Shown one piece after another: positions 1,966 through 14,833 of a stretch of DNA of 64,000 nt (its first letter is position 1; every line of letters starts with the position of its first letter). Origin of the DNA: Escherichia coli O127:H6 str. E2348/69 (GTDB lineage Bacteria > Pseudomonadota > Gammaproteobacteria > Enterobacterales > Enterobacteriaceae); the NCBI RefSeq assembly GCF_000026545.1, contig NC_011601.1; one strand, given 5' to 3'. The notes below the pieces were generated by a model, which worked only from the letters and a program-made list of their open reading frames with translations, did not search any database and was not told where the DNA came from. The position numbers were made by a program, and so were the translations under genes.

Positions 1966-2566
1966 TTCGTTGTTACCACCATCAGCCAGCAATTTCATGC
2001 GTTGTGCCGAAGCCGTCGGAACACGCATTACAGACATTCCGGTAGACCTCAACACGCTGTGGTCGCCGGACACCTGCCCGGTGCATCTGCTGCCTTATCT
2101 CGCCTGGGCATTTTCCGTTGACCGCTGGGATCGCAACTGGCCGGAAGAGACAAAGCGACAGGTGATTCGTGATGCATGGCTGATACACCGACACAAAGGG
2201 ACCATCAGCGCACTGCGAAGAGCCGTGGAGCCTCTCGGCTACCTGATTGAAGTAAAGGAGTGGTGGCAACTCAACGAGGAACCGGGAACATTTCGCATTG
2301 TTGTCGGAGTACTTGATCAGGGCATCACCGATGAAATGTATCAGGAACTTGAGCGCCTTATTGCGGATGCAAAACCAGTAAGTCGCCATCTGACGGGGCT
2401 GGCGATCAGCCTGAGTGTGAACGGAAAGATTTTCGTTGGTACGGGATGCTATCACGGCGATGCCCTGACGGTTTATCCCTACACCCCGGAGTCCATTATT
2501 GTCGAAGGGGATTATTTCCCTGCCCCAGCCATTCATTTAATTGATAATCTGAGAGTAAACGCATGA
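1958..2566 (+). CDS. tail protein, P2 gpI-like
   Basis: ORF 1925..2566; in-frame ATG at 1958 overlaps J stop; size and position match P2 I. Confidence 0.75.
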   Translation: MSNSLLPPSASNFMRCAEAVGTRITDIPVDLNTLWSPDTCPVHLLPYLAWAFSVDRWDRNWPEETKRQVIRDAWLIHRHKGTISALRRAVEPLGYLIEVKEWWQLNEEPGTFRIVVGVLDQGITDEMYQELERLIADAKPVSRHLTGLAISLSVNGKIFVGTGCYHGDALTVYPYTPESIIVEGDYFPAPAIHLIDNLRVNA

Positions 2567-4128
2567 CAGTGAAATACTACGCCATTCTGACTAATCAGGG
2601 CGCGGCACGACTGGCTAACGCGACGATGCTCGGCAGTAAGCTGAATCTGACGCAAATGGCCGTTGGTGATGCAAATGGTGTGTTACCAACACCAGACCCT
2701 GCACAAACAAAACTGATTAACCAGAAACGCATTGCACCGCTGAATCTTCTGAGTGTTGACCCTAACAATCAGAGCCAGATTATTGCGGAGCAAATCATCC
2801 CTGAAAACGAGGGAGGATTCTGGATCCGTGAGATTGGTCTTTATGATGATGAAGGTGTACTCATTGCGGTGGCAAACTGCCCGGAAACGTACAAACCGCA
2901 GTTGCAGGAAGGCAGTGGACGCACCCAGACTATCCGCATGATTCTGGTTGTCACGAACACCGAAGCCATCACGCTGAAAATCGACCCGTCTGTGGTTCTG
3001 GCAACCCGCAAATATGTGGATGATAAAATCTCAGAGCACGAACAGTCACGACGTCACCCGGACGCCTCGCTGACCGTAAAAGGTTTTACTCAGTTAAGCA
3101 GTGCAATTAACAGTGAATCAGAAACACTGGCCGCAACACCGAAAGCGGTTAAGGCTGCATATGACCTGGCTAACGGGAAATATACCGCCCAGAACGCCAC
3201 CACTACACAAAAAGGAATTGTTCAGCTCAGTAGCGCCACGAACAGCACGTCTGAAACGCTGGCAGCGACACCAAAAGCTGTTAAGGCGGTAATGGATGAA
3301 ACGAACAAGAAAGCACCATTAAACAGCCCGGCACTGACCGGAACGCCAACAACACCAACAGCGCCACAGGGGACTAATAGTACCCAGATCGCAAGCACGG
3401 CTTTCGTTATGGCCGCGATTGCCGCACTTGTAGATTCGTCACCTGATGCACTGAACACGCTGAACGAACTGGCTGCGGCGCTGGGCAATGACCCGAATTT
3501 TGCGACCACCATGACTAACGCGCTTGCGGGTAAGCAACCGAAGGATGCCACCCTGACGGCGCTGGCAGAGCTTGCTACATCAGCAGATAAACTCCCATAT
3601 TTTACAGGGGCAGATCGTGCCGCGTTAACCGCGTTGACAAGTGTTGGACGTGCCATTCTTGGTAAAACCAGCACTCAGGGAGTTCTTGATTACCTTGGTT
3701 TGGGGGAAGGCTCTGCACTGCCCGTTGGTGTGCCCGTTCCGTGGTCCTCAGCAACACCACCAACGGGCTGGCTGAAATGTAACGGTGCAGCATTTTCTTC
3801 TGAAATGTATCCCAGACTGGCAAGGGCTTATCCCACCAATAAATTACCGGATTTACGCGGTGAATTTATCCGTGGCTGGGATGATGGGCGCGGGATTGAT
3901 GCGGGACGTACCCTGCTTTCAGGGCAGGATGGTACAAGTTTTTCTCATTACGGAGGTAATTTCGACATTGGGTCTGGTCATTCAATCAATAACTATGACC
4001 AAATTGTTTCTAACCAACCAGGCTTTTCCCGTTTTTCATTTGCAGGGCCTTCACGAGGTGATGGGGTTAATTATGTAACCATTCGTCCTCGTAATATTAC
4101 GTTTAATTACATCGTAAGGGCAGCATGA
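2563..4128 (+). CDS. tail fiber protein, P2 gpH-like (constant N-terminal part fused to C-terminal cassette A)
   Basis: 521 aa ORF; internal duplicated SETLAATPKAVKA motif typical of tail fibers; C-terminal 140 aa begin with the GLGEGSALPVGVPVPW repeat shared with two other cassettes. Confidence 0.85.
   Translation: MTVKYYAILTNQGAARLANATMLGSKLNLTQMAVGDANGVLPTPDPAQTKLINQKRIAPLNLLSVDPNNQSQIIAEQIIPENEGGFWIREIGLYDDEGVLIAVANCPETYKPQLQEGSGRTQTIRMILVVTNTEAITLKIDPSVVLATRKYVDDKISEHEQSRRHPDASLTVKGFTQLSSAINSESETLAATPKAVKAAYDLANGKYTAQNATTTQKGIVQLSSATNSTSETLAATPKAVKAVMDETNKKAPLNSPALTGTPTTPTAPQGTNSTQIASTAFVMAAIAALVDSSPDALNTLNELAAALGNDPNFATTMTNALAGKQPKDATLTALAELATSADKLPYFTGADRAALTALTSVGRAILGKTSTQGVLDYLGLGEGSALPVGVPVPWSSATPPTGWLKCNGAAFSSEMYPRLARAYPTNKLPDLRGEFIRGWDDGRGIDAGRTLLSGQDGTSFSHYGGNFDIGSGHSINNYDQIVSNQPGFSRFSFAGPSRGDGVNYVTIRPRNITFNYIVRAA
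3685..3710 (+). promoter_or_regulatory. putative invertase crossover site A (hix/gix-like) at start of cassette A
   Basis: Sequence ...ccttggtttgggggaagg... marks start of ~225 bp repeat; weaker dyad than site B. Confidence 0.4.
3695..3920 (+). repeat. repeat copy A (~225 bp, direct) encoding conserved N-terminal 75 aa of tail-fiber C-terminal cassette
   Basis: Near-identical to 4134..4360 (direct) and reverse complement of 5475..5696. Confidence 0.85.
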
Positions 4129-4149
4129 AAACGTTGGTTTGGGGGAAGG
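4124..4149 (+). promoter_or_regulatory. putative invertase crossover site B (hix/gix-like)
   Basis: catGAAAACgtTGGTTTggggg resembles the AAACC..GGTTT dyad of Hin/Gin sites as recalled; sits exactly at repeat boundary. Confidence 0.45.
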
Positions 4150-4360
4150 CTCTGCACTGCCCGTTGGTGTGCCCGTTCCATGGCCCTCAGCCACGCCGCC
4201 AACGGGATGGCTGAAATGTAACGGCGCAGCATTTTCTTCTGAAAAGTACCCAAAACTGGCAAGGGCTTACCCCACCAATAAATTACCAGACTTACGCGGT
4301 GAATTTATCCGTGGCTGGGATGATGGGCGAGGAATTGATGCGGCACGCGCTTTATTGAGC
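4134..4360 (+). repeat. repeat copy B (direct relative to A)
   Basis: Sequence identity with copy A visible by eye over about 225 bp. Confidence 0.85.
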
Positions 4361-4615
4361 ATTCAAAACGGGATGTTGGAAAAACACCGCCATATTGTTG
4401 TAGCTAACGATGGATATGACACAAAGGATGAATGGGAGTTGGCCACGATTTTCAAAAAAACATATACGCAAGGCAGGGGGCTTGATGCCACAAATACAGG
4501 AGGGAGTTTGATTCCATCACCAACGCTTCATTCACGAGGAAGTATTGGTAACACAGGTGGTAGTGAAACCCGCCCCCGCAATATTGCATTTAACTATATC
4601 GTGAGGGCGGCTTAG
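4139..4615 (+). CDS. alternative tail-fiber C-terminal cassette B (promoterless, lacks fiber N-terminus)
   Basis: 158 aa ORF begins MGEGSALPVGVPVPW and ends PRNIAFNYIVRAA, same architecture as C-terminus of gpH. Confidence 0.6.
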   Translation: MGEGSALPVGVPVPWPSATPPTGWLKCNGAAFSSEKYPKLARAYPTNKLPDLRGEFIRGWDDGRGIDAARALLSIQNGMLEKHRHIVVANDGYDTKDEWELATIFKKTYTQGRGLDATNTGGSLIPSPTLHSRGSIGNTGGSETRPRNIAFNYIVRAA

Positions 4616-4621
4616 TTATAT

Positions 4622-5233
4622 TCAACTGGCTGCTGCCAGTGGTATTTCCGGCAAGTTGATATCTGGTGCCATGTTTATATCCATTGCGTTCAGCGCGTCT
4701 ATATAATCCAGCACGGCATTAAGCCGGGTGGTTTCTGCCTGCGTCAACTTCCGCCCGGCCTGCAACTTCAACTGAATCAGACTTATGGAAGCCATTGCCG
4801 CATCAGCCAGTGACTGGCGCTTGGTTTCTGCCGCTTCTACTGCAGCACGATGTTGTGCCTCAGTATCTGTCACCCATTTTTCACCATCCCATTTATCGTA
4901 TGGTGTTAACGGGGCGATAGTGGTTGTATTTTTCGGGTAGTCACCCAGCGCCGTGATTTCTTCGGTGTTTCCCGTGTCAGTGCTATAGACGGTTTCACCA
5001 CGATGGTCTGGCGCATACTCCCATGAGCTTAAATTCTCCGAACGGCGGATAGCATAGCCCGCTTTATGTGCGCCCGGGGCATCTAAACAGGAATTTGCCG
5101 GAATACCGACACCCACAGCAAGATATTCAGTTGATTCGGAAATATATTCCCGTGTCTCACCATCATAGTTATAAACGACGATGTTTCCTGCCTGTACGGC
5201 AATAAGGTCATCATTTAATATCGCGTTATTCAT
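4622..5233 (-). CDS. tail fiber assembly protein (Tfa/gpG-like chaperone)
   Basis: 203 aa ORF immediately downstream of cassette C on minus strand; size and position typical of Tfa. Confidence 0.65.
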   Translation of the reverse strand: MNNAILNDDLIAVQAGNIVVYNYDGETREYISESTEYLAVGVGIPANSCLDAPGAHKAGYAIRRSENLSSWEYAPDHRGETVYSTDTGNTEEITALGDYPKNTTTIAPLTPYDKWDGEKWVTDTEAQHRAAVEAAETKRQSLADAAMASISLIQLKLQAGRKLTQAETTRLNAVLDYIDALNAMDINMAPDINLPEIPLAAAS

Positions 5234-5700
5234 TATGCGGTTCTCACAATATAATTGAAGGCAATATTGCGTGGGTGGGTTTCATTCCCCTCTGAGGATT
5301 CCGTTCTGTATTGACTGGTAAATCTACCGTTAATTGCACCTTGCCGGACGGCGTTATCTGTCGACAACAGACTATCCCCTCCTTTGTCATTTGGCACCAA
5401 CACCGTGTTATCCCACGCATCCCATGACCGAATATTATGATAATGACTTCCTGTTAACCACCCCTGCATGCTTAAGATGCCCCTTCCGGCATCCACCCCG
5501 CGCCCATCATCCCAGCCACGGATAAATTCACCGCGTAAATCCGGTAATTTATTGGTGGGGTAGGCCTTTGCCAGTTTTGGGTACATTTCAGAAGAAAATG
5601 CTGCACCGTTACATTTCAGCCACCCTGCTGGCGGTGTGGCTGAGGGCCACGGAACAGGTACACCAACGGGCAGTGCAGAGCCTTCCCCCAAACCAACGTT
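5233..5700 (-). CDS. alternative tail-fiber C-terminal cassette C (inverted orientation)
   Basis: Minus-strand frame encodes GLGEGSALPVGVPVPW...PRNIAFNYIVRTA; the annotated Met upstream is probably not a real start. Confidence 0.6.
   Translation of the reverse strand, partial: NVGLGEGSALPVGVPVPWPSATPPAGWLKCNGAAFSSEMYPKLAKAYPTNKLPDLRGEFIRGWDDGRGVDAGRGILSMQGWLTGSHYHNIRSWDAWDNTVLVPNDKGGDSLLSTDNAVRQGAINGRFTSQYRTESSEGNETHPRNIAFNYIVRTA
5475..5696 (-). repeat. repeat copy C (inverted relative to A and B)
   Basis: Reverse complement of copies A/B. Confidence 0.85.
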
Positions 5701-5706
5701 TTCGTT
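5681..5706 (-). promoter_or_regulatory. putative invertase crossover site C (hix/gix-like), inverted, about 60 bp upstream of invertase gene
   Basis: Reverse complement reads cgAAAACgtTGGTTTgggggaagg; position next to invertase as gixR is to gin in Mu. Confidence 0.45.
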
Positions 5707-5762
5707 TTTATCCCTACCTATACCAACTCTGTATTTTTCACGAAACAAAGAGGATGTTTTTT

Positions 5763-6362
5763 ATGCAAATTGGCTATATTCGTGTGTCAACAAATGACCA
5801 GAACACGGATTTACAACGCAATGCACTGAACTGCGCAGGATGTGAACTGATTTTTGAAGATAAAATCAGCGGAACGAAATCAGCCAGACCGGGATTGAAA
5901 AAACTGCTCAGAACGCTATCAGAAGGAGATACGCTGGTTGTCTGGAAGCTGGACAGACTGGGCAGAAGTATGAAACACCTGATCACGCTTATTGAGGAAT
6001 TGCGGGAAAAAGGTGTTAATTTCCGTAGTCTGACGGACAGCATTGACACATCAACACCCATGGGGCGTTTCTTTTTTCACGTCATGGGGGCTTTAGCCGA
6101 AATGGAACGTGAATTAATTGTAGAGCGTACACTGGCCGGGCTGGCAGCAGCACGCGCACAAGGACGCATTGGCGGACGTCGCCCGAAGTTGACAAAAGAA
6201 CAACACGAGCAAATAGCGAGGCTGATTAAAAACGGTCATGACAGGAAACAACTGGCGATCATTTACGACATCGGCATATCGACGATTTATCGTTATCACC
6301 CTGTAGGCGATATACAGGCTGAAGAAACAACCAGGCAGACTCAGGAAAATAAAAACCGCTAA
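5763..6362 (+). CDS. serine DNA invertase, Gin/Pin/Cin/Hin family
   Basis: N-terminus MQIGYIRVSTNDQNTDLQRNAL and internal VVWKLDRLGRSMKHLI, SLTDSIDTSTPMGRFFFHVMGALAEMERELI match Gin/Hin as recalled; C-terminal HTH region. Confidence 0.9.
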   Translation: MQIGYIRVSTNDQNTDLQRNALNCAGCELIFEDKISGTKSARPGLKKLLRTLSEGDTLVVWKLDRLGRSMKHLITLIEELREKGVNFRSLTDSIDTSTPMGRFFFHVMGALAEMERELIVERTLAGLAAARAQGRIGGRRPKLTKEQHEQIARLIKNGHDRKQLAIIYDIGISTIYRYHPVGDIQAEETTRQTQENKNR

Positions 6363-6384
6363 TCTGACCATTAGCGGTTTTGCG
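6349..6384. terminator. bidirectional hairpin between convergent invertase and gpU genes
   Basis: Inverted repeat accgctaat/attagcggt flanked by A-run on one side and T-rich on other. Confidence 0.45.
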
Positions 6385-6388
6385 TTAA

Positions 6389-6883
6389 TCAAAACAGCCC
6401 TTTAACGGAGCTGGCCGCGCTGTTAAGGGATGATGTGACCTTATCTTTGAAGCCGGACAGCATATCACTGAACGATGAGGATTGCAGGCGCTCCCGCAAA
6501 TCCTCATCACAGCGTTCAAGAGTCAGTGAAAATTCTATCTTTTTCGCCTTACCGTAGCGATCAAACTCGGAACGGGTCGTATTCGTTTCAGTCAGTACAT
6601 ACATGCCGTAAATCTGCCCGACACCATCAATCAGAGGCCAGGGGCGTCCTGTATATGCCTGCGTGGTCAGCAACGAAAGCGACACTTCGCCACCTGTAAT
6701 TTCAGGATAAAGCACGCCGGAAAGCACGATGCGATCATCACCTGCGCCGATATACTGCCAGCTTGCTGAACGGTTAACGCGTTCATTTTTCACATGCCGC
6801 CAGCTTTTGTTTTGCTGTAACTGCTGATGCGGCAATGTGCGCAGCTCAAAAACAAACATGCCGTAGATCATCATCATGGCCAT
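6389..6883 (-). CDS. tail protein, P2 gpU-like
   Basis: 164 aa ORF directly downstream of tape measure gene; size and order match P2 U. Confidence 0.75.
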   Translation of the reverse strand: MAMMMIYGMFVFELRTLPHQQLQQNKSWRHVKNERVNRSASWQYIGAGDDRIVLSGVLYPEITGGEVSLSLLTTQAYTGRPWPLIDGVGQIYGMYVLTETNTTRSEFDRYGKAKKIEFSLTLERCDEDLRERLQSSSFSDMLSGFKDKVTSSLNSAASSVKGLF

Positions 6884-6889
6884 GACTCC

Positions 6890-9733
6890 TCAATCTTTAT
6901 CGTAAAAACTGCCACGTCCGGCACGGTCGCGTCGTTCCAATTCTGCCCTGACCATTTCACCGACCAGTTTCGCCAGTTTGCGGGGATTCTGCGTAACAAC
7001 GTTATGCAGATGAACATGAATTTCACCGCCAAATCCGGAGACAACAGGCTCCCGGTTACGGGAAGTTGCAGGAACTGATGCCACTGGCGATCGTATGGCC
7101 TCCGCCACCGGGCGGGAGCTGGCCGCAACAACAGGGACCAGCGCCGGAGGCAGAGGAGTCGGGACCACGGGTGTGATGTTGATTGCGGAAGCAGGCTTAC
7201 TGACCTGCGCAATCTTCCGCTCCTGCCACTCCCCACGAACAGCAAGTGCGCGGGGCAGATTCTTAAAGACAATATCGCCGGGGCCAATGCGTTTTTTCGT
7301 CTCATCAACCAGCTTACCTGTGTTATCAGCAATTTTGCTGAGTCTGCGTAGCGTACCGGTATTGCTGTCTGTGAGCGGTTTGTTGTCTTTGGGTTTATCA
7401 CCTCCGGTGCCATTGCCATTTTCCACAGGCTTCGGCGGATTGATTTTCGCCAGGTCCCCCTGAAGCAAGGCAACCTTGTCCTGAAGAATGGCCGCACGCT
7501 GTGCGTCTTCGATTTTCTTGCGCGCCCTTTCCGCTTCATCCGGAAGGACGCCAAGTTTTTCAAGTATCCACGCCAGCGTATCCAGTAGCATTTTTGCAGG
7601 CGTCAGAACAAGTTGTAACGCACCGCCAAGAACGTTACCGAATATCTCGCCAGCACTGGTACATTTATCCAGCGTTTCCTTGCTGGACTCCATCGGTGAC
7701 AGCAGCGATTTAAACCAGTTAAACACCTGGCTGATCCCGCTTCCGATTGCGTCAAAAACAGGACCAAACCGTTCAAAGGTTTCGCGCAACGGGGCCAGCC
7801 TTTCCATAATCCCGCTGAACACCCCGGCAAAAAATGCCCTGATGGGATCCCAGTATTTCCAGATAAGAACGGCAGCTCCGGCAAGTGCAGCCACGATAAG
7901 ACCAACCGGACTGAACAGCGCCCCGATAGCGCCTCCCAGTAAAGAAACGGAACCCGTCACCATTCCCCATAGTGCTGGCAGGACCCTGACAGCATTCATT
8001 GATCCGGTCAGGAGAGAAAAACCAAGACGCAGTTTTGCCAGCGGACCAGCAAGCACACCAATAGCCAGCGACAACGAGCCAACCGTTGCAGTCATTGCCA
8101 GCAACGCACCGCCTGCTATCAGTAGCTGGCGCGTCAGTGCCGGATGGGCCTGCGCCAGCGCCGTCACCCTTGATACCACCCGCGTGAGCCACTGCGTGAC
8201 AGAACGCAGCGGACCGTCAATCAGATCTGCAATGCGGATGCGCAACCCTTCCCATGCACTGCCGAGTGATTTCAGATCGCCGTCAAGGTTGTTGGCCATA
8301 ACCTTTGCTGTGCGTTCAGCCTCACCGCGCGCGCCTTCAAGTTCTTTTCTCAGTTTGGGTAAGGAACCGTCACCCGCTGCATCAACGAGCGCCATAAACG
8401 ATGTGAAAGCCTCTTCTCCGGCAATGTCCTTAAAGAACGATACCCGGTCAACTTCCCCGTATTTGCGGGTGGCTTTATAAAGGTCGGCCAGCACATCCTC
8501 CATCGGGCGCATTTTGCCCCCGGCATCCGAGACGGACACGCCCAGCTCTTTCAGAGCTTCTGCCGCCGCCTTTGGCGGTGATGCCAGACGAGCCAGGCTG
8601 GCACGCATTGCCGTCCCGGCATCACTCCCTCTGATGCCCATATTCGCCAGCACGCCAGCCATCGCTGCGGCCTGCTCCAGCGATATTCCCAGCTTACCCG
8701 CCACCGGACCTGCATATTTCATGGTTTCGCCCAGTGCGCGAAGGTCAGTGTTGGTACGGGTAAACGCTGCGGTGAGTGTGTCACCGACCCGGTCCATCTG
8801 GTCAGCAGAAAGGCCGAACTGCGTCAGGATATTTGAGCCAATATCTGCCGTCTCGCCGAGATCCATACCGCCAGCCGTTGCCATGCTCAGCACTCCGGGA
8901 AGCGCAGCCTGAATGGCCTGCGGTGTGAAGCCAGCCATTGCAAGAAATGCCTGCCCACTGGCGGCATCGCCTGCGGTGAACTGCGTTTCAGAGCCAAGTT
9001 TTAACGCCTGCTCACGCAGCGCCTTAAACTGCGGGCTGTTCTGGTCGATTCGCGTCAGCGCCTGAACGCGGGACATCTCTTTGCCGAACCCGATCGCGGG
9101 CTGCAAAAAACGCCCGGCAGCATAGCCGCCCGCCGCTGCCGCACCAATTGCCAGCGCACCACCTGTTTTCAGTTTTCCCGCGGTTTCCTGCGCGCGCGAA
9201 TACCGCTCACGCGCCCGCGTTACACGCGCAAGCGCCTGCCGTTCGCGTTCAAGCTGGTTGTTGTACTGTTCGGTGCGTCTGATGGCCTGCTGGATGGTGT
9301 TATCGCTGCCTGTCAGGGAAATGCCGTGGCGTTTCAGCTCTCCGCCAAGTTCCCGCATTTTCTGAATTTCCCGTGTGCGCGATTCATTCAGGCGTTCAAG
9401 CCGGGTGCTTAACTGCTGCATCAGCTTTTGTTGTTTTTCGCTGAGCACTGTACCCGTGCGTTGTAACTGATTAAGAGCGTTAAGCTGGCGTCGTGCTTTC
9501 AATATGCCAGCATCCGCTTTACTGACAGCGTCACGGGCGCGCTCAAATGAACGCGCCTGACGCTCGAGATTTTTGATCGCCCCCTGCGTTCGCTGGATGG
9601 AGTCACCAAACTGCCCCATCAGGCGGCGGGCGTTTTCGGCAGGCCGGGTCAGCCTGTCAACGGCGCTGAAAGCGACCCGGATATCAAGAGTCTTCATTGT
9701 CTGTATTCCCGCTGCGAAGTGCCGCCCGCTCAC
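6890..9733 (-). CDS. tail tape measure protein, P2 gpT-like (start uncertain: GTG 9733 or ATG 9697)
   Basis: 947 aa ORF, Ala/Gly-rich with hydrophobic segments, follows E/E' as in P2. Confidence 0.8.
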   Translation of the reverse strand: MSGRHFAAGIQTMKTLDIRVAFSAVDRLTRPAENARRLMGQFGDSIQRTQGAIKNLERQARSFERARDAVSKADAGILKARRQLNALNQLQRTGTVLSEKQQKLMQQLSTRLERLNESRTREIQKMRELGGELKRHGISLTGSDNTIQQAIRRTEQYNNQLERERQALARVTRARERYSRAQETAGKLKTGGALAIGAAAAGGYAAGRFLQPAIGFGKEMSRVQALTRIDQNSPQFKALREQALKLGSETQFTAGDAASGQAFLAMAGFTPQAIQAALPGVLSMATAGGMDLGETADIGSNILTQFGLSADQMDRVGDTLTAAFTRTNTDLRALGETMKYAGPVAGKLGISLEQAAAMAGVLANMGIRGSDAGTAMRASLARLASPPKAAAEALKELGVSVSDAGGKMRPMEDVLADLYKATRKYGEVDRVSFFKDIAGEEAFTSFMALVDAAGDGSLPKLRKELEGARGEAERTAKVMANNLDGDLKSLGSAWEGLRIRIADLIDGPLRSVTQWLTRVVSRVTALAQAHPALTRQLLIAGGALLAMTATVGSLSLAIGVLAGPLAKLRLGFSLLTGSMNAVRVLPALWGMVTGSVSLLGGAIGALFSPVGLIVAALAGAAVLIWKYWDPIRAFFAGVFSGIMERLAPLRETFERFGPVFDAIGSGISQVFNWFKSLLSPMESSKETLDKCTSAGEIFGNVLGGALQLVLTPAKMLLDTLAWILEKLGVLPDEAERARKKIEDAQRAAILQDKVALLQGDLAKINPPKPVENGNGTGGDKPKDNKPLTDSNTGTLRRLSKIADNTGKLVDETKKRIGPGDIVFKNLPRALAVRGEWQERKIAQVSKPASAINITPVVPTPLPPALVPVVAASSRPVAEAIRSPVASVPATSRNREPVVSGFGGEIHVHLHNVVTQNPRKLAKLVGEMVRAELERRDRAGRGSFYDKD

Positions 9734-9947
9734 GCCAGCTAACCACTTCGCCGGGAGTCATCATGAAGATTTCGGCGGGCGACCAGTTAAAAATGGTGGC
9801 AATATCCGCCACCAGATCTTCGATGTGCTCAAAGCACACCAGGGTGATTACGCTGCCGTCTCCTGCACGCTCTTCGCGCCAGAGTCTGGCTCGCTCATAA
9901 AATTTACAGCCACAGCGCACAACTGAATAAAATCGCGTGACGACATT
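9684..9947 (-). CDS. gpE' extension, expressed as E+E' fusion by programmed -1 frameshift
   Basis: Overlapping frame downstream of an A-run (ttaaaaaaatg) inside E; C-terminus ...NTDNEDS typical of E+E'. Confidence 0.5.
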   Translation of the reverse strand, partial: NVVTRFYSVVRCGCKFYERARLWREERAGDGSVITLVCFEHIEDLVADIATIFNWSPAEIFMMTPGEVVSWRERAALRSGNTDNEDS

Positions 9948-10222
9948 TTTTTAATCATCACTTCATCCAGTTGTGGCGAGGTCACGCGAGGCAACAGCGT
10001 GAACATGGTATCCGCTTTCAGATTCAGCACATCAGACAGCGACAGACCACGCAGGGATCCCGCCTGCTCAATAGCCCCGGTGATCTCCACATATGTGATT
10101 TTTTCGGCACCACGCTCAATTGGCCGGGAAAGTTTTACACCACGTTCGACAGCCATATCCTCACCTGCCGTCACATCATCCGCTACGGTGTTATTCCGGG
10201 TTTCAGTATCGATATTTTTCAT
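9848..10222 (-). CDS. tail assembly chaperone, P2 gpE-like
   Basis: ORF between FII and T; N-terminus MKNIDTETRNN; paired with overlapping E' frame. Confidence 0.7.
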   Translation of the reverse strand: MKNIDTETRNNTVADDVTAGEDMAVERGVKLSRPIERGAEKITYVEITGAIEQAGSLRGLSLSDVLNLKADTMFTLLPRVTSPQLDEVMIKKMSSRDFIQLCAVAVNFMSEPDSGAKSVQETAA

Positions 10223-10277
10223 CAGTTGTCTCCTTTTCAGTCAGAGGCGACGCACTGCGCCGCCTGCATATTACTTA

Positions 10278-10790
10278 TCAGCCAAGCCCGAGCGCGGAAC
10301 GGATGCGATCGGGCACAATGTCCTTGCCGTCCTTCCGGTAAATGAAGTTCAGCAGGTCAATCTCCCACAACGGACGATCGTTAACACTCAGCTTGTAGTA
10401 GGTGTTTTTAATGGCGTAAGTGTGTGATGTGGCTTCGCCCTGTTTGGCTTCCCCCATATCAATTTCCGTCACACGTCCGCGCATTTCGACTTCATACAGG
10501 TCGCTTTCTGCATCGGTGTAATATTCACCCGCAAAACGCAGCAGCGTGCCGTCAATCGTGCCGCCATACTTAAGGAACAGCTCACGAACTGCGCCCCCCA
10601 TGACAAAGCTCGCATCAAGCGCGGAGTCGTCCAGACCGAGATCAATACTTACCGCCCCCATCATGCCACCACCCCGGTAGCTGTCGGTTTTGCGCGTCAG
10701 CTTAGGCAGGGTGACGGACGTCACCTTACCCACTTCGTTTTCACCATCCACAAACAGCGTAAAAAAGCGAAGATGTTTTGGCACAGCCAT
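10278..10790 (-). CDS. tail tube protein, P2 gpFII-like
   Basis: 170 aa ORF directly downstream of sheath gene. Confidence 0.8.
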   Translation of the reverse strand: MAVPKHLRFFTLFVDGENEVGKVTSVTLPKLTRKTDSYRGGGMMGAVSIDLGLDDSALDASFVMGGAVRELFLKYGGTIDGTLLRFAGEYYTDAESDLYEVEMRGRVTEIDMGEAKQGEATSHTYAIKNTYYKLSVNDRPLWEIDLLNFIYRKDGKDIVPDRIRSALGLG

Positions 10791-11974
10791 CAGGCACCTC
10801 CCAGCACCGCAAATGCGGGTTCAAAGTATTCATCAGTAAACGTCTGGTAAAGCTCCATGTCTTCCAGTGGCGGAACGGGCGTATATTTGTAGCGAATACG
10901 CACACGCCCCTGACGTAAATCCGTGGTGCTGTTATCCACCACGTCATACCAGCACTCCGCGCCAATCAGTTTCCCGGCAGTCACCAGTGAATCCAGTTTT
11001 GCCCTGATGGCACTGATAACATCCTTCACGTTCGCAGGCGTCAGTGGACTGTCGATGGTTTCAAACTGCGCTTCCGCAATTGAATCAGCCAGCACCTGTG
11101 CGGTTCGGGTATACACCTCAAAGATGTAGGCGTTCGTTTCCGGTGTGCGGTTGCCCCAGAAGCGGAACCCGTTGCGACGAATAATGGTCGTGATTTCTTT
11201 GTTGTTGAGGCTGTTGGCATCGCTGTCTTCGGCCTGCAACGACCAGAACACATGCCTCGACATCCCCAGCACATTTTTAACCGGAACGTTGGACAGTGAT
11301 TTGTGCCAGCCCTGCTCATGGTCAATGTACGCACGAAGGCCGCACGCATAGGCAGGCGCGGGGAACGTTTCGTTTTTGCCACTTTTCGGGTTGTAGGCGA
11401 TGAAGTCCGGCCATAAGAGCATCACCTCACGTTCGTTGAATTTCTGGCGGTAGGTAATCGCATCAGCCATCGTGTCACAGCCATGACATGAGGCATACAC
11501 AAACGCGCGCAGTTTACCCGCAATCACGCACAGGGATTTTGTCACCGCCTCCGTGTCCAGCTCCGGCGCGGCCAGAATACGCGGACGGTATCCGATGCTT
11601 TCATCCTGCTCTGCAACAAGCAGCGCATACATCCCCGTATAGCTGCCGTCAGATTCAGAACCACCGATAACCAGTTGATCCTGCGTCTTTCCGTCTTCTT
11701 CTTTGTGTTCAGCCACGCGAACGACGATCACCTTTGTGCTCACCTGGTCTGCGATAGCCTTAAGCGCACGATAAAGCGTCCCCGTTGTCCCGCATTTTCC
11801 CAGCACGTCATTGACGCGGGTCAGCAGTGTGGGCTTGTTCAGCGGGAACAGCTTCGCGTCCGCATCATCCGCCGTTGCCACGATACCGATAACACTGGAA
11901 TCAACATCATTAATCGCTGTTACCAGGTCGGTATTTTCCGTAACACGGGCACCATGAAAACGAGTTTCACTCAT
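10790..11974 (-). CDS. contractile tail sheath protein, P2 gpFI-like
   Basis: About 394 aa from internal Met MSETRFHG of 452 aa ORF; position before FII. Confidence 0.8.
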   Translation of the reverse strand: MSETRFHGARVTENTDLVTAINDVDSSVIGIVATADDADAKLFPLNKPTLLTRVNDVLGKCGTTGTLYRALKAIADQVSTKVIVVRVAEHKEEDGKTQDQLVIGGSESDGSYTGMYALLVAEQDESIGYRPRILAAPELDTEAVTKSLCVIAGKLRAFVYASCHGCDTMADAITYRQKFNEREVMLLWPDFIAYNPKSGKNETFPAPAYACGLRAYIDHEQGWHKSLSNVPVKNVLGMSRHVFWSLQAEDSDANSLNNKEITTIIRRNGFRFWGNRTPETNAYIFEVYTRTAQVLADSIAEAQFETIDSPLTPANVKDVISAIRAKLDSLVTAGKLIGAECWYDVVDNSTTDLRQGRVRIRYKYTPVPPLEDMELYQTFTDEYFEPAFAVLGGA

Positions 11975-12131
11975 AGCTTCAGCCCCTTGTATCCGTAAAA
12001 TGATTCGGCAACAATCATCACCCACCACGCGCGTAATCTCACCCCTGCGCCGTTCTCCCGACCCGGCGACAACAAAAAGCAGTAACCCCCTCCGCACGCA
12101 CATGCGACCATGCCGCACAGGGAGGGAACAG

Positions 12132-13232
12132 ATGACCGATACCACCATGCAATTGCTCAGTCAGGGCACAGACCCCGTGAAAATGCCGGATTTTGATATT
12201 CTCGCGGAGGGTAAAACGCTGTCAGGCGTGGCAGAGCGCCTGATGAGCCTGTCACTGACCGACAACCGGGGATTTGAGGCGGACCAGCTCACCATCACGC
12301 TGGATGATGCGGATGGTCAGTTGCAGCTACCGCCACGGGGCGCGCGCCTGACGGTTCTCATTGGCTGGAAAGGAGAACCGCTGACAGAAAAAGGCACTTA
12401 CATTGTTGATGAAATCGCTCACGAAGGACCGCCGGACAGGCTGACTGTTTCAGCCAGAAGCGCAGATTTTCGGGATGAATTTAACGTTAAACGTGAGGTG
12501 TCCTGGCATGATGTGACCGTTGAGCGCGTGGTATCTGCCATCGCTCATCGGTACGGTCTGAAACCGCAAATCAGCGAAATACTGATGGATATCGAAATCG
12601 ACCACGCCGACCAGACCGAAGAAAGCGACATGTCCTTCCTTACGCGCATGGCGGAAATGCTGGGCGCAATCACCACGGTAAAAAGCGGTAATCTGTTATT
12701 CATCATGCCAGGCGGTCGCGTGAACGCACTGGGCCAGCCGTTGCCATCGTTCGCCATCACACGCAGCAGCGGCGATCGCCATCAGTTCCGCATTGCTGAC
12801 CGCGAGGCGTATACGGGTGTACGCGCCTACTGGCTTGATCTTAATTACGGGAAAAAGAAAAAAGTCAGCGTGAAACGCCGCAAACCGAAAAAAGAGAAAA
12901 GCAGCAGCCGTGAAGGTGACTATATGGAAGGTGCGGAAGGCAACGTGTTTGTGTTACGCAAAACTTATCAGAACGAGCAGGCAGCAAGACGCGCAGCGGC
13001 GGCAAAATGGCAGCAGCTACAACGCGGAGCCGCATCATTTTCCATCACGCTGGCACGTGGACGAGCAGAACTCTACCCCGAAATGCATGGCACGGTAACA
13101 GGATTTAAAAGCGAGATTGATAATCAGGACTGGATCATTGCAAAAGCCGAGCACACCATTGATAACAGTGGCTTTACCACGCAGCTTGAGCTTGAAGCCA
13201 AAATCCCGGAATGGATAGCAGAAACAGAGTAA
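12132..13232 (+). CDS. tail protein, P2 gpD-like
   Basis: About 366 aa from MTDTTMQLL; lysine-rich linker; precedes ogr as in P2. Confidence 0.75.
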   Translation: MTDTTMQLLSQGTDPVKMPDFDILAEGKTLSGVAERLMSLSLTDNRGFEADQLTITLDDADGQLQLPPRGARLTVLIGWKGEPLTEKGTYIVDEIAHEGPPDRLTVSARSADFRDEFNVKREVSWHDVTVERVVSAIAHRYGLKPQISEILMDIEIDHADQTEESDMSFLTRMAEMLGAITTVKSGNLLFIMPGGRVNALGQPLPSFAITRSSGDRHQFRIADREAYTGVRAYWLDLNYGKKKKVSVKRRKPKKEKSSSREGDYMEGAEGNVFVLRKTYQNEQAARRAAAAKWQQLQRGAASFSITLARGRAELYPEMHGTVTGFKSEIDNQDWIIAKAEHTIDNSGFTTQLELEAKIPEWIAETE

Positions 13233-14241: not shown

Positions 14242-14502
14242 ATGTTCCGTTGTCCGCTTTGTGGCGCATCTGCCCGTATCCGCACCAGTCGTCCGGAAAA
14301 TGATTCAAACACCGTGCGGCAAAAGTATTACCAGTGTAACAACCTGGAATGCGGCGTATGCTTCTCAACACTGGAAGCTTTCCATAAATTCACATCGAAA
14401 CACGCCTCCGGCATCCACTCTTCAGAAGGTATCCCGTGGCATGAGCTGCCAGCTTCACACAGGGGAAACAATCAGATGAGCTTGCCTTTACCTCAGAATT
14501 AA
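14242..14502 (+). CDS. ogr: late gene transcriptional activator, Ogr/Delta zinc-finger family
   Basis: N-terminus MFRCPLCGASARIRTSR...YYQCNNLECG with Cys-x2-Cys...Cys-x4-Cys pattern as in P2 Ogr; 86 aa, longer than the ~72 aa recalled for P2. Confidence 0.8.
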   Translation: MFRCPLCGASARIRTSRPENDSNTVRQKYYQCNNLECGVCFSTLEAFHKFTSKHASGIHSSEGIPWHELPASHRGNNQMSLPLPQN

Positions 14503-14562: not shown

Positions 14563-14775
14563 ATGGTCGGAGGGAATACCCGAAGGCCAGATGTGGAAAG
14601 GCCCCGGAAAACATCTCTGTTTAACCGAGGCCCTAACCGCATTACCTTGACAAGTGAAAGGTTAGCGCCTCTCCGGAAAAGGAGCAAGTGCTATGTCGCA
14701 AAAATCGCTTACGGCCATCACGTTCTGCGTGACGGCAATCCTCATCATCTGGATGTTGCACGGTTCGCTGTGTGA
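14563..14775 (+). CDS. mok-like overlapping reading frame of hok-family locus
   Basis: 70 aa ORF in different frame overlapping the hok-like ORF, as mok overlaps hok in plasmid R1. Confidence 0.4.
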   Translation: MVGGNTRRPDVERPRKTSLFNRGPNRITLTSERLAPLRKRSKCYVAKIAYGHHVLRDGNPHHLDVARFAV

Positions 14776-14833
14776 AATACGGATGAGCTTCTGGGGAGCG
14801 GAGTTTGCGGCGTTCTTACAGTGTAAGCAGTAA
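14693..14833 (+). CDS. Hok/Gef-family type I toxin (small membrane peptide)
   Basis: 46 aa: MSQKSLTAITFCVTAILIIWMLHGSLCEIRMSFWGAEFAAFLQCKQ; TM segment followed by SLCEIR and E(V/F)AAF motifs of Hok; good SD (aaaaggag) upstream. Confidence 0.75.
   Translation: MSQKSLTAITFCVTAILIIWMLHGSLCEIRMSFWGAEFAAFLQCKQ

Follow-up and report, generated by a model that had tools for sequence, protein, structure and literature searches.

The two-state inversion switches of tail fibres, namely the G segment of Mu, the C segment of P1 and the P segment of e14, each alternate between two states by means of two sites, and their two Sv-U modules have one chaperone apiece. Din invertases are known to cross-complement one another, and Gin, Cin, Pin and Hin are interchangeable. 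A multiple-inversion system, Min of plasmid p15B, was reportedly described by Sandmeier et al. in 1990 (PNAS 87:1109) and 1992 (J Bacteriol 174:3936). The shufflon of R64 is characterized by the tyrosine recombinase Rci and 19-bp sfx repeats. FRphi, an Enterobacter prophage with a gin-type recombinase, has three C-terminal tail-fibre isoforms, a mixture of which was seen in long reads of both prophage and virion DNA; the tests covered a gin deletion as well as locked isoforms, and one isoform was found to use FhuA as its receptor (Nat Microbiol 2026, PMC13418256).

The closest description concerns the same locus. Using paired-end sequencing and PCR, Goldberg et al. (2014, Genome Med 6:112, PMC4272514) found three partially homologous repeats in identical DNA, within a P2-like prophage of EPEC E2348/69, and termed the system 'complex phase variation' or a shufflon. 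The existence of a multi-way switch at this locus has thus been known since 2014, and switches of this kind since Min of p15B. Since the demonstration was made in the same strain, confirmation adds little; what we add are the 26-bp sites, their core dinucleotide, an enhancer-like region, the single-chaperone layout and the relation to larger arrays in prophages and P1-like plasmids. Our analysis leaves us with little doubt that the locus, which lies in an apparently complete P2-like prophage of E2348/69, is a tail-fibre switch of the Gin/Cin/Pin/Min (Din) type that works by multiple inversions.

Repeat blocks, cassettes and crossover sites

The window, i.e., the whole stretch of 64,000 nucleotides that was analysed, is 100% identical to NZ_LT827011, a match that identifies it as E. 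coli O127:H6 E2348/69. A repeat search of the window found a block of ~215 nt in triplicate, two copies being direct and one inverted, with 89-92% identity. The direct pair spans 3687-3908 and 4126-4347 (222 nt, 91%), and the inverted pairs span 4127-4365 and 5465-5703 (239 nt, 89%) and 3692-3906 and 5485-5699 (215 nt, 92%). Such a set of repeats is far beyond chance, and the first-pass annotation, which had described a ~225 bp block occurring twice on the plus strand and once inverted, was borne out. The peptide GLGEGSALPVGVPVPW...RGEFIRGWDDGRG is encoded by all three copies. Compared copy with copy, the constant blocks differ at 18-21 nt but in just 4-5 amino acids per 213 nt/71 aa; these differences are mostly synonymous, so all copies are under selection. 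The features of the fibre region are as follows.

2563..3694, plus strand: tail-fibre gene H, constant N-terminal part of 377 codons, fixed and outside the invertible DNA, within the ORF 2563-4128
3683..3708, plus strand: crossover site A, TTCTTGATTACC TT GGTTTGGGGGAA, core TT at 3695-3696
3697..4128, plus strand: cassette Sv1, gpH-fused at present, constant block and 72-aa variable tip, stop codon at 4126-4128
4122..4147, plus strand: crossover site B, AGCATGAAAACG TT GGTTTGGGGGAA, core at 4134-4135, left half formed by the last codons and stop of Sv1
4136..4615, plus strand: cassette Sv2, constant block and 88-aa variable tip, own promoter and start absent
4622..5233, minus strand: tail-fibre assembly (chaperone) gene, tfa, directly downstream of Sv3, its ATG (5231-5233) overlapping the Sv3 stop (5233-5235)
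5233..5694, minus strand: cassette Sv3, inverted, constant block and 82-aa variable tip with the end IVRTA, 66 bp upstream of the invertase gene
5683..5708, minus strand: crossover site C, which reads AAAACGAAAACG TT GGTTTGGGGGAA in the coding orientation, core at 5695-5696

The gpH protein contains the Pfam domain Phage_tail_fib (1-150), two Phage_fiber_2 repeats and a Collar domain (aa 389-436), and the constant part of gene H shows 82% nucleotide identity to P2 gene H. The three variable ends share 27-32% pairwise identity and all close with PRNI(T/A)FNYIVR(A/T)A, in line with the differing ends of ~70-90 aa and the common tail noted earlier. All three tips can be joined in frame to the constant gpH part, to give products of 521, 537 and 531 aa, as had been proposed for the fusion of the gpH N-terminus to any of three ends. 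The second copy, previously described as a promoterless cassette, proved to be the start-less Sv2. In RefSeq, the start-less cassettes are labelled as separate genes or pseudogenes. The assembly gene belongs to PHROG 105 tail fiber assembly (E 3.7e-91) and is annotated in RefSeq as a tail fiber assembly protein; it accompanies only one cassette, Sv3, and both Sv1 and Sv2 are without one.

Sites A, B and C are 26 bp long; in each, two imperfect inverted half-sites of 12 bp flank a 2-bp core, TT in all three. For comparison, sites were taken from the e14, P1 and Mu records, of which the P1 record annotates the crossover between two T's. The pix sites of e14, CTCTCGAAAACC TT GGTTTGGGAGAA and TTTTCATAAACG TT GGTTTGGGAGAA, P1 cixL, CAATCCTAAACC TT GGTTTAAGAGAA, whose TT contains the annotated crossover, and Mu gix, TTATCCAAAACC TC GGTTTACAGGAA, all align with sites A, B and C, in keeping with the hix/gix resemblance suspected at the copy starts. 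The starts first assigned to the copies (3695, 4134 and 5696) fall exactly on the core dinucleotides. The start sequence thought to be shared by the copies was found at copies B and C as GAAAACGTTGGTTT, whereas copy A reads GATTACCTTGGTTT.

Invertase and inversion states in E2348/69

Beyond site C lie three further features.

5763..6362, plus strand: Gin/Pin-family serine DNA invertase gene, 199 aa, adjoining the inverted copy
5781..5852, plus strand: enhancer-like region, invertase gene nt 19-90, blocks at 5787-5797 (TCAACAAATGA) and 5835-5845 (GCAGGATGTGA), 48 bp apart
6352..6381, unstranded: hairpin terminator separating the invertase gene from convergent gpU

The invertase matches the Gin structures 4m6f and 3uj3 (E 3e-91; 3.3e-91 for 4m6f, residues 1-185), its C-terminus matches the Hin DNA-binding domain 1hcr, and it is assigned to PHROG 125 DNA invertase. 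Its YIRVSTNDQ motif aligns with YVRVSTNDQ of Gin and the catalytic Ser is intact, in agreement with the family and active site assigned in the first reading. Gin, Cin, PinE of e14 and the invertase of a P1-like plasmid are 72.8%, 73.7%, 82.5% and 94.7% identical to it, respectively. When aligned with the P1 cin enhancer (AF234172), gin and pinE, the enhancer-like blocks were invariant across the four genes, but they also encode conserved residues. A single full match to the Fis consensus was found at 5833-5847, as judged from the sequence. We infer that inversion requires both Fis and the enhancer.

The repeat sequence printed by Goldberg et al. is identical to window positions 3692-3906. Their paired-end reads and PCR showed two overlapping inversions, large and small, with four coexisting variants, which PCR confirmed, and three alternative C-termini (PMC4272514). 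The forward orientation accounted for 90 +/- 3% at the inversion NC_011601 1891695-1893703, and the value was 49 +/- 37% for 1892127-1893703; all four variants occurred together in clonal cultures, and flipping goes on constantly in uninduced E2348/69 cultures (PMC4272514). The read mapping and PCR suggested as a check in the first-pass annotation had therefore already been published for this strain. We found that NZ_CP059840.2, a second complete assembly of the same strain, matches the sequence predicted for A x C recombination over 5,500 bp without a single mismatch, and that Sv3 is gpH-fused in it. The A x C junction lies within 3695-3731, the first 37 bp of the repeat. The core common to the sites is TT; the single assembly junction narrows the crossover to this 37-bp interval, not to the dinucleotide.

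The two overlapping invertible segments measure about 2.0 and 1.56 kb. Among the inversions predicted earlier, A x C and B x C stand, whereas A x B is possible only after a first flip, because A and B are direct repeats in the present state. The reachable DNA states are four, not more. In two of the four, tfa is antisense to the late operon.

According to the mechanism that we propose, the late tail operon would transcribe the fixed N-terminal part of gpH (2563-3694) and continue into the cassette currently behind site A. Each of the three cassettes encodes a complete tail-collar tip, comprising a conserved 71-aa first half, a variable insert of 72-88 aa and a conserved last strand. Each opens at a 26-bp TT-core site; at internal sites, the cassette that comes before contributes the left half-site with its end (IVRAA-stop-AAACG). 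The serine invertase encoded beyond site C would exchange strands at the TT core between inversely oriented sites, with help from the enhancer-like region near the 5' end of its coding sequence and presumably from Fis. When the order seen here, [Sv1+, Sv2+, tfa-/Sv3-], undergoes A x C inversion, the result is [Sv3+/tfa+, Sv2-, Sv1-], and B x C results in [Sv1+, Sv3+/tfa+, Sv2-]; a second flip, from either product, leads to [Sv2+, tfa-/Sv3-, Sv1-]. The outcome is four DNA states and three fibre proteins of the lengths given above, whose tips probably bind different receptors.

Related arrays and alternative explanations

Related E. coli prophages carry 2-5 such cassettes and sites in varied permutations, and the internal sites in all of these relatives have the common left flank ...GCATGAAAACG. 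EC9 and EC9682 contain the same four cassettes in orders that are three inversions apart, with breakpoints at the site cores. Sv1 lies inverted beside the invertase in EC9 and 14EC047, and Sv2 is gpH-fused in STEC1590 and inverted beside the invertase in EC9682. The 92-kb P1-like phage-plasmid NZ_CP196102 has 13 sites and cassettes, among them homologues of Sv1, Sv2 and Sv3, together with one tfa and the 94.7% identical invertase mentioned above. The array sizes observed were thus 2, 3, 4, 5 and 13 cassettes.

These relatives bear on the identity of the catalyst, which is probably the adjacent invertase. Two other prophages of E2348/69, one Mu-like and one P2-like, each have an inversion system of their own (PMC4272514), and since their Din-family invertases may act in trans, the adjacent gene may not be the sole catalyst. 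It is even conceivable that a real switch is driven mainly in trans by one of these, the local gene being weakly expressed or redundant, as suggested by the similar cores of the two further invertible loci, AAACCTTGGTTTGGGAGAA and TTGTTTGGGAGAAG (PMC4272514), by the inversion of the e14 P segment in trans by PinQ of the Qin prophage (PMC12529663) and by the interchangeability of Gin, Cin, Pin and Hin. However, the local gene is intact and has an enhancer-like region, it is retained in relatives that retain cassettes, and it goes together with this type of cassette in many prophages and plasmids, invertases with 94.7-97.9% identity adjoining the arrays of loci L011 and L020. We therefore regard predominant action in trans as unlikely and favour the local invertase.

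We give still less credence to the idea that the lysogen keeps the locus not for phage host range but for the benefit of the host, for example through killing of the tailocin type or through an anti-phage protein that masks receptors, as StfE2 of e14 does. An inversion-made tail-fibre chimera does block T2 adsorption in K-12 (PMC12529663), and constant flipping in uninduced cultures would suit such a role, but lysogens do not normally express late tail genes. Moreover, the prophage seems to be complete: it runs from integrase to ogr and has the full set of head, tail and lysis genes, so that ordinary host-range variation is sufficient, and the locked isoforms of FRphi differ in infectivity, one of them using FhuA (PMC13418256).

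Each constant block moves together with the cassette to which it belongs (identity 99%, as against about 90%), and its first ~20 nt (GGGGG/CTC versus TAGGAG/TTC variants) do not always do so in relatives; this exchange of the leading ~20 nt among cassettes points to some added gene conversion or homologous exchange. That the inversions themselves arise by general RecA-dependent homologous recombination between 215-bp inverted repeats, with the neighbouring invertase incidental, is hardly credible: the repeats are long (215-239 nt, 89-92% identical), short leading segments seem to be swapped, and the variation from 2 to 5 cassettes needs deletion or duplication between direct repeats, but all junctions examined lie at the extreme upstream repeat edge, at the 26-bp pix/cix/gix-like site, the constant blocks remain about 10% divergent, there is a Gin homologue that is intact and contains a conserved enhancer-like region, and the share of inverted forms in clonal cultures reaches 10-50% (PMC4272514), much more than RecA would achieve on 215 bp with 90% identity.

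Within the site-specific switch thus preferred, chaperone-less cassettes each carry the next left half-site (last codons, stop and AAACG), and arrays could therefore grow or shrink. As the single tfa is welded to one cassette type, chaperone expression itself would be switched on and off by flipping, and one tfa per array implies that most tips would fold without a dedicated chaperone. It is possible, although we hold this tentatively and with some doubt, that P2-like prophages and P1-like phage-plasmids share an open-ended modular cassette system with a single tfa flipped on and off. In a bolder version, by analogy with StfE2 of e14, the lysogen might exploit the flipping tips for its own defence.

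Multi-way tail-fibre switches allow temperate phages and phage-tail weapons to hedge their bets over several receptors. Such switches also cause mis-annotation and mis-assembly, clonal cultures being mixtures; of practical use here are the exact coordinates of the crossover sites, the set of four reachable states and the finding that public assemblies of the same strain differ only by this flip. The single-chaperone design with cassettes carrying half-sites could guide P2/P4-based delivery particles with switchable host range.

Comparison with known inversion systems

The locus resembles Mu G, P1 C and e14 P in its invertase (73-82% identity), in its 12-2-12 sites, whose sequence is nearly that of e14 pix (TTTTCATAAACG TT GGTTTGGGAGAA), and in switching the fibre C-terminus. 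As in the Gin, Cin and Pin systems, an enhancer or enhancer-like region lies at the 5' end of the invertase gene, and as in Mu, this gene lies beyond the far site. A two-state switch of the Mu G, P1 C or e14 P type was rejected, since there are three sites, three tips and one tfa. Like the R64 shufflon, the locus has a cluster of invertible segments that overlap and by which the C-terminal end of a surface adhesin, PilV in R64, is exchanged. The serine-type recombinase and 26-bp hix-like sites rule out an R64-type shufflon, and the term 'shufflon' therefore applies by analogy only. FRphi, likened here by description, is a different phage in a different host.

In kind, the locus resembles Min of p15B, with which it shares a Din-family serine invertase, more than two sites, overlapping segments and a constant tail-fibre 5' part with alternative 3' cassettes; here, three sites, two overlapping segments and three fusions were found. 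Homology to a Min-type system runs through the P1-like plasmid NZ_CP196102, p15B itself being likened by description. Min has six or more sites and hundreds of states, whereas the E2348/69 locus resides in a P2-like prophage and, with three sites, three tips and four states, is the Min-like, more than two-way switch that the first-pass annotation had envisaged.

Organization of the locus and its cassettes

The DNA examined is chromosomal and belongs to E. coli O127:H6 E2348/69; positions 2563-6362 of the window matched both NZ_LT827011 and NZ_LT903847 at 100%, and about 3,000 E. coli genomes gave a match. The first 15 kb cover the half of a P2-like prophage that holds the tail genes; the prophage extends from an integrase beside btuC to ogr and hok beside ihfA and looks complete. 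The genes V, W, J, I and H are followed by a start-less cassette, a tail-fibre assembly (chaperone) gene, a second start-less cassette and a recombinase gene.

Features of the locus
2563-4128, +, tail-fibre gene H (gpH)
ends at 4615, +, first start-less cassette
4622-5233, -, tail-fibre assembly gene (tfa)
5233-5694, -, second start-less cassette
5763-6362, +, recombinase gene (199 aa)

The phage collection contained no close full-length relative of the locus (best coverage, 35%). NCBIfam assigned no family to gpH, the cassettes or tfa, and the invertase drew only sub-threshold recombinase models; PHROGs, Pfam and PDB were the informative resources for these genes.

A repeat search of the window detected one direct pair (3687-3908/4126-4347, 91% identity) and two inverted pairs (4127-4365/5465-5703, 89%; 3692-3906/5485-5699, 92%), far beyond chance, confirming the three repeat copies claimed in the first-pass annotation. 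Each copy is headed by a crossover site (A, B or C), behind which lie the cassettes Sv1, Sv2 and Sv3, respectively. The 71 conserved codons behind each site represent the start of the Pfam Collar domain, and are followed by 72, 88 or 82 aa of variable sequence (pairwise identity, 27-32%) and a common PRNIxFNYIVRxA end. Compared with one another, the three constant blocks show 18-21 differences over 213 nt, against only 4-5 over 71 aa, which means that all of them have been kept functional. Joining the fixed part of gpH at the site core to Sv2 or Sv3 gave ORFs of 537 and 531 aa, respectively. RefSeq calls the start-less cassettes (4139-4615 and 5233-5691) separate 'phage tail protein' genes that start at a TTG within the crossover site, and the displaced Sv1 in a flipped assembly of the same strain (L019, 5919-6353) is annotated as a pseudogene 'missing N-terminus'; both kinds of call are artefacts that arise from annotating an invertible locus.

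Crossover sites, recombinase and candidate enhancer

Each repeat copy opens with a 26-bp sequence in a 12-2-12 layout, aligned below with known sites. According to the P1 record annotation, crossover occurs between the two T's.

Crossover sites (left half, core, right half)
Site A: TTCTTGATTACC TT GGTTTGGGGGAA, core 3695-3696
Site B: AGCATGAAAACG TT GGTTTGGGGGAA, core 4134-4135
Site C (coding orientation): AAAACGAAAACG TT GGTTTGGGGGAA, core 5695-5696
e14 pix sites (e14 record): CTCTCGAAAACC TT GGTTTGGGAGAA and TTTTCATAAACG TT GGTTTGGGAGAA
P1 cixL (P1 record): CAATCCTAAACC TT GGTTTAAGAGAA
Mu gix (Mu record): TTATCCAAAACC TC GGTTTACAGGAA

At the internal site B, the left half-site consists of the last codons of the preceding cassette, its stop codon and AAACG, and the flank ...GCATGAAAACG lies upstream of every internal site in the relatives. 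Within the first ~20 nt past the site cores of the related loci L002-L010, we observed two right half-site/first-codon variants, TTGGTTTGGGGGAAGGCTC and TTGGTTTAGGAGAAGGTTC, spread over the cassettes irrespective of cassette identity, as exemplified by Sv2 in the window versus L002 and L007 (STEC1590), and by Sv3 in L005 versus L010 (EC9682). The opening ~20 nt of a constant block thus sometimes part from their cassette, which hints at some short-patch gene conversion among the copies in addition to site-specific exchange.

The recombinase matched the Mu Gin crystal structures 4m6f and 3uj3 over residues 1-185 (E about 1e-91), its catalytic motif YIRVSTNDQ is intact, and its C-terminus matched the Hin DNA-binding domain. 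It is 72.8% identical to Gin, 73.7% to Cin, 82.5% to e14 PinE and 94.7% to the invertase of a P1-like phage-plasmid. This adjacent invertase is the probable catalyst. In the P1 record, the Cin enhancer is annotated at nt 19-90 of cin. A four-gene alignment of this stretch showed two invariant blocks, TCAACAAATGA (5787-5797) and GCAGGATGTGA (5835-5845), 48 bp apart and separated by variable sequence, the latter block forming part of a sequence that matches the Fis consensus in full. The blocks are consistent with a Fis-dependent enhancer, which is not thereby proven because they also code for conserved residues.

Inversion and its DNA states

The inversion was described by Goldberg et al. (2014; PMC4272514) from single-colony sequencing of E2348/69. 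In a P2-like prophage, they reported "two interlaced funnels" and three partially homologous inverted repeats; four variants of the locus were confirmed by PCR, and three alternative C-termini were noted for one protein. Their Table S1 lists a large inversion (NC_011601 1891695-1893703; forward form, 90 +/- 3%) and a small one (1892127-1893703; 49 +/- 37%), and prints the leftmost repeat, whose 215 nt correspond exactly to window 3692-3906. We built the predicted gpH::Sv3 junction and searched it against complete E. coli genomes. It was present at 100% in NZ_CP059840.2, another assembly of E2348/69, with the gene order H-Sv3, tfa(+), Sv2(-), Sv1(-), invertase. When 3695-5696 was inverted in silico, the window showed 0 mismatches to this assembly over 5,500 bp, and the comparison placed the crossover within the initial 37 bp of the repeat (3695-3731). 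RecA-type homologous recombination as the main mechanism was rejected on the junction position and the inversion frequency.

Sites A and B are in direct orientation, so that the present order permits only two inversions, A x C and B x C.

States of the locus
Present order: Sv1+, Sv2+, tfa-/Sv3-
After A x C: Sv3+/tfa+, Sv2-, Sv1-
After B x C: Sv1+, Sv3+/tfa+, Sv2-
After a second flip from either product: Sv2+, tfa-/Sv3-, Sv1-

The A-B inversion proposed in the first-pass annotation is thus unavailable in the present order, and becomes possible after a first flip. The total is four DNA states and three proteins, in agreement with PMC4272514. The chaperone gene accompanies Sv3 only, and two of the four states place it antisense to the late operon. 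Scanning 3500-6500 for sigma-70 promoters and terminators yielded nothing exceeding shuffled background, and no promoter driving tfa/Sv3 leftwards from the invertase side. Deletion between direct sites by Din invertases is rare.

Relatives, neighbouring genes and known systems

Among related prophages of other strains, the number of cassettes varies (2, 3, 4 or 5), which shows that loss or gain happens on evolutionary time scales. EC9 and EC9682 share the same set of four cassettes, and three inversions separate their two orders; the left flanks are position-specific and fixed, with the cassette-specific right parts swapped at the core. The window's Sv1 is inverted beside the invertase in EC9, its Sv2 is joined to gpH in STEC1590, and the constant block goes with its own cassette (99% versus about 90% identity). 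The 92-kb P1-like plasmid NZ_CP196102 carries 13 sites and cassettes, including homologues of Sv1, Sv2 and Sv3, with one tfa and the 94.7% identical invertase. Its array (NZ_CP196102.1; L020, 159-7054) has 11 cassettes in one orientation and 2 in the opposite one. Some of them are duplicated, and close by lies a second recombinase fragment, which is frameshifted. Frameshifted or truncated cassettes, tfa and gpH occur in some relatives, namely L006 (14EC047), L008 and L009; in L006, frameshifts affect many genes along the locus and are more readily attributed to errors of long-read assembly than to decay.

Elsewhere in the prophage, the U-T-E-FII-FI tail block (6389-11974, minus) runs in the reverse of its direction in the canonical P2 order (H G ... 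FI FII E T U D ogr), and V-W-J-I-H as well as D and ogr (plus strand, 12000-13232 and 14242-14502) keep the P2 orientation, so that FI and D diverge across a ~150-bp spacer. This layout is common to all related prophages fetched. To examine whether the invertase made this rearrangement, we searched the block borders (6363-6388 and 11975-12131), and found no hix-like sites or inverted repeats. The RefSeq start of gpD (VgrG/Pvc8 family) at 12441 gives 263 aa, and a partial 'hypothetical protein' (12388-12480) overlaps it on the opposite strand. The ORF is open from 12000 (12000-13232), and initiation at an MTDTTMQLLSQG near 12132 would yield ~367 aa, close to P2 gpD (387 aa); the start is probably mis-called, rather than the gene truncated. 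Upstream of the window in the same prophage (L018, 12708-15991), ParM-like and partition genes precede an AAA-family ATPase and S8 peptidase gene pair, between the replication and portal genes, at the place that holds variable cargo such as old/tin in P2-like phages; by analogy, the pair is possibly a defence system. A Hok/Gef toxin gene (14693-14833) occupies the right end of the prophage, immediately before ihfA, and a frameshifted ShET2/EspL2-family type III effector pseudogene (22978-23758) lies between thrS and yniD.

Three independent lines, namely the published experiment, the second same-strain assembly and the permuted relatives, establish that the locus inverts. With small corrections, they support the three-cassette tail-fibre switch originally proposed, and its mechanism is well founded. 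The locus is already known, having been described experimentally in E2348/69 in 2014 (PMC4272514), which reports two further inversion systems in this strain. Invertases of those systems could contribute in trans to the switch, as documented for PinQ on e14 (PMC12529663). A three-isoform gin "shufflon" of Enterobacter phage FRphi, one isoform of which uses FhuA, has been functionally dissected (PMC13418256).

In its recombinase, its 26-bp crossover sites and the inversion that takes place at them, the locus conforms to a Din-family invertase system, with a candidate enhancer in the invertase gene. It is not an R64-type shufflon, because its enzyme is a serine and not a tyrosine recombinase. 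Multi-inversion tail-fibre switches of this kind have been known since 1990. With its three sites, more than the two of the two-state switches of Mu, P1 and e14, and with its overlapping segments, the locus is of the type of Min of p15B, for which the P1-like plasmid NZ_CP196102 served as the sequence comparison.
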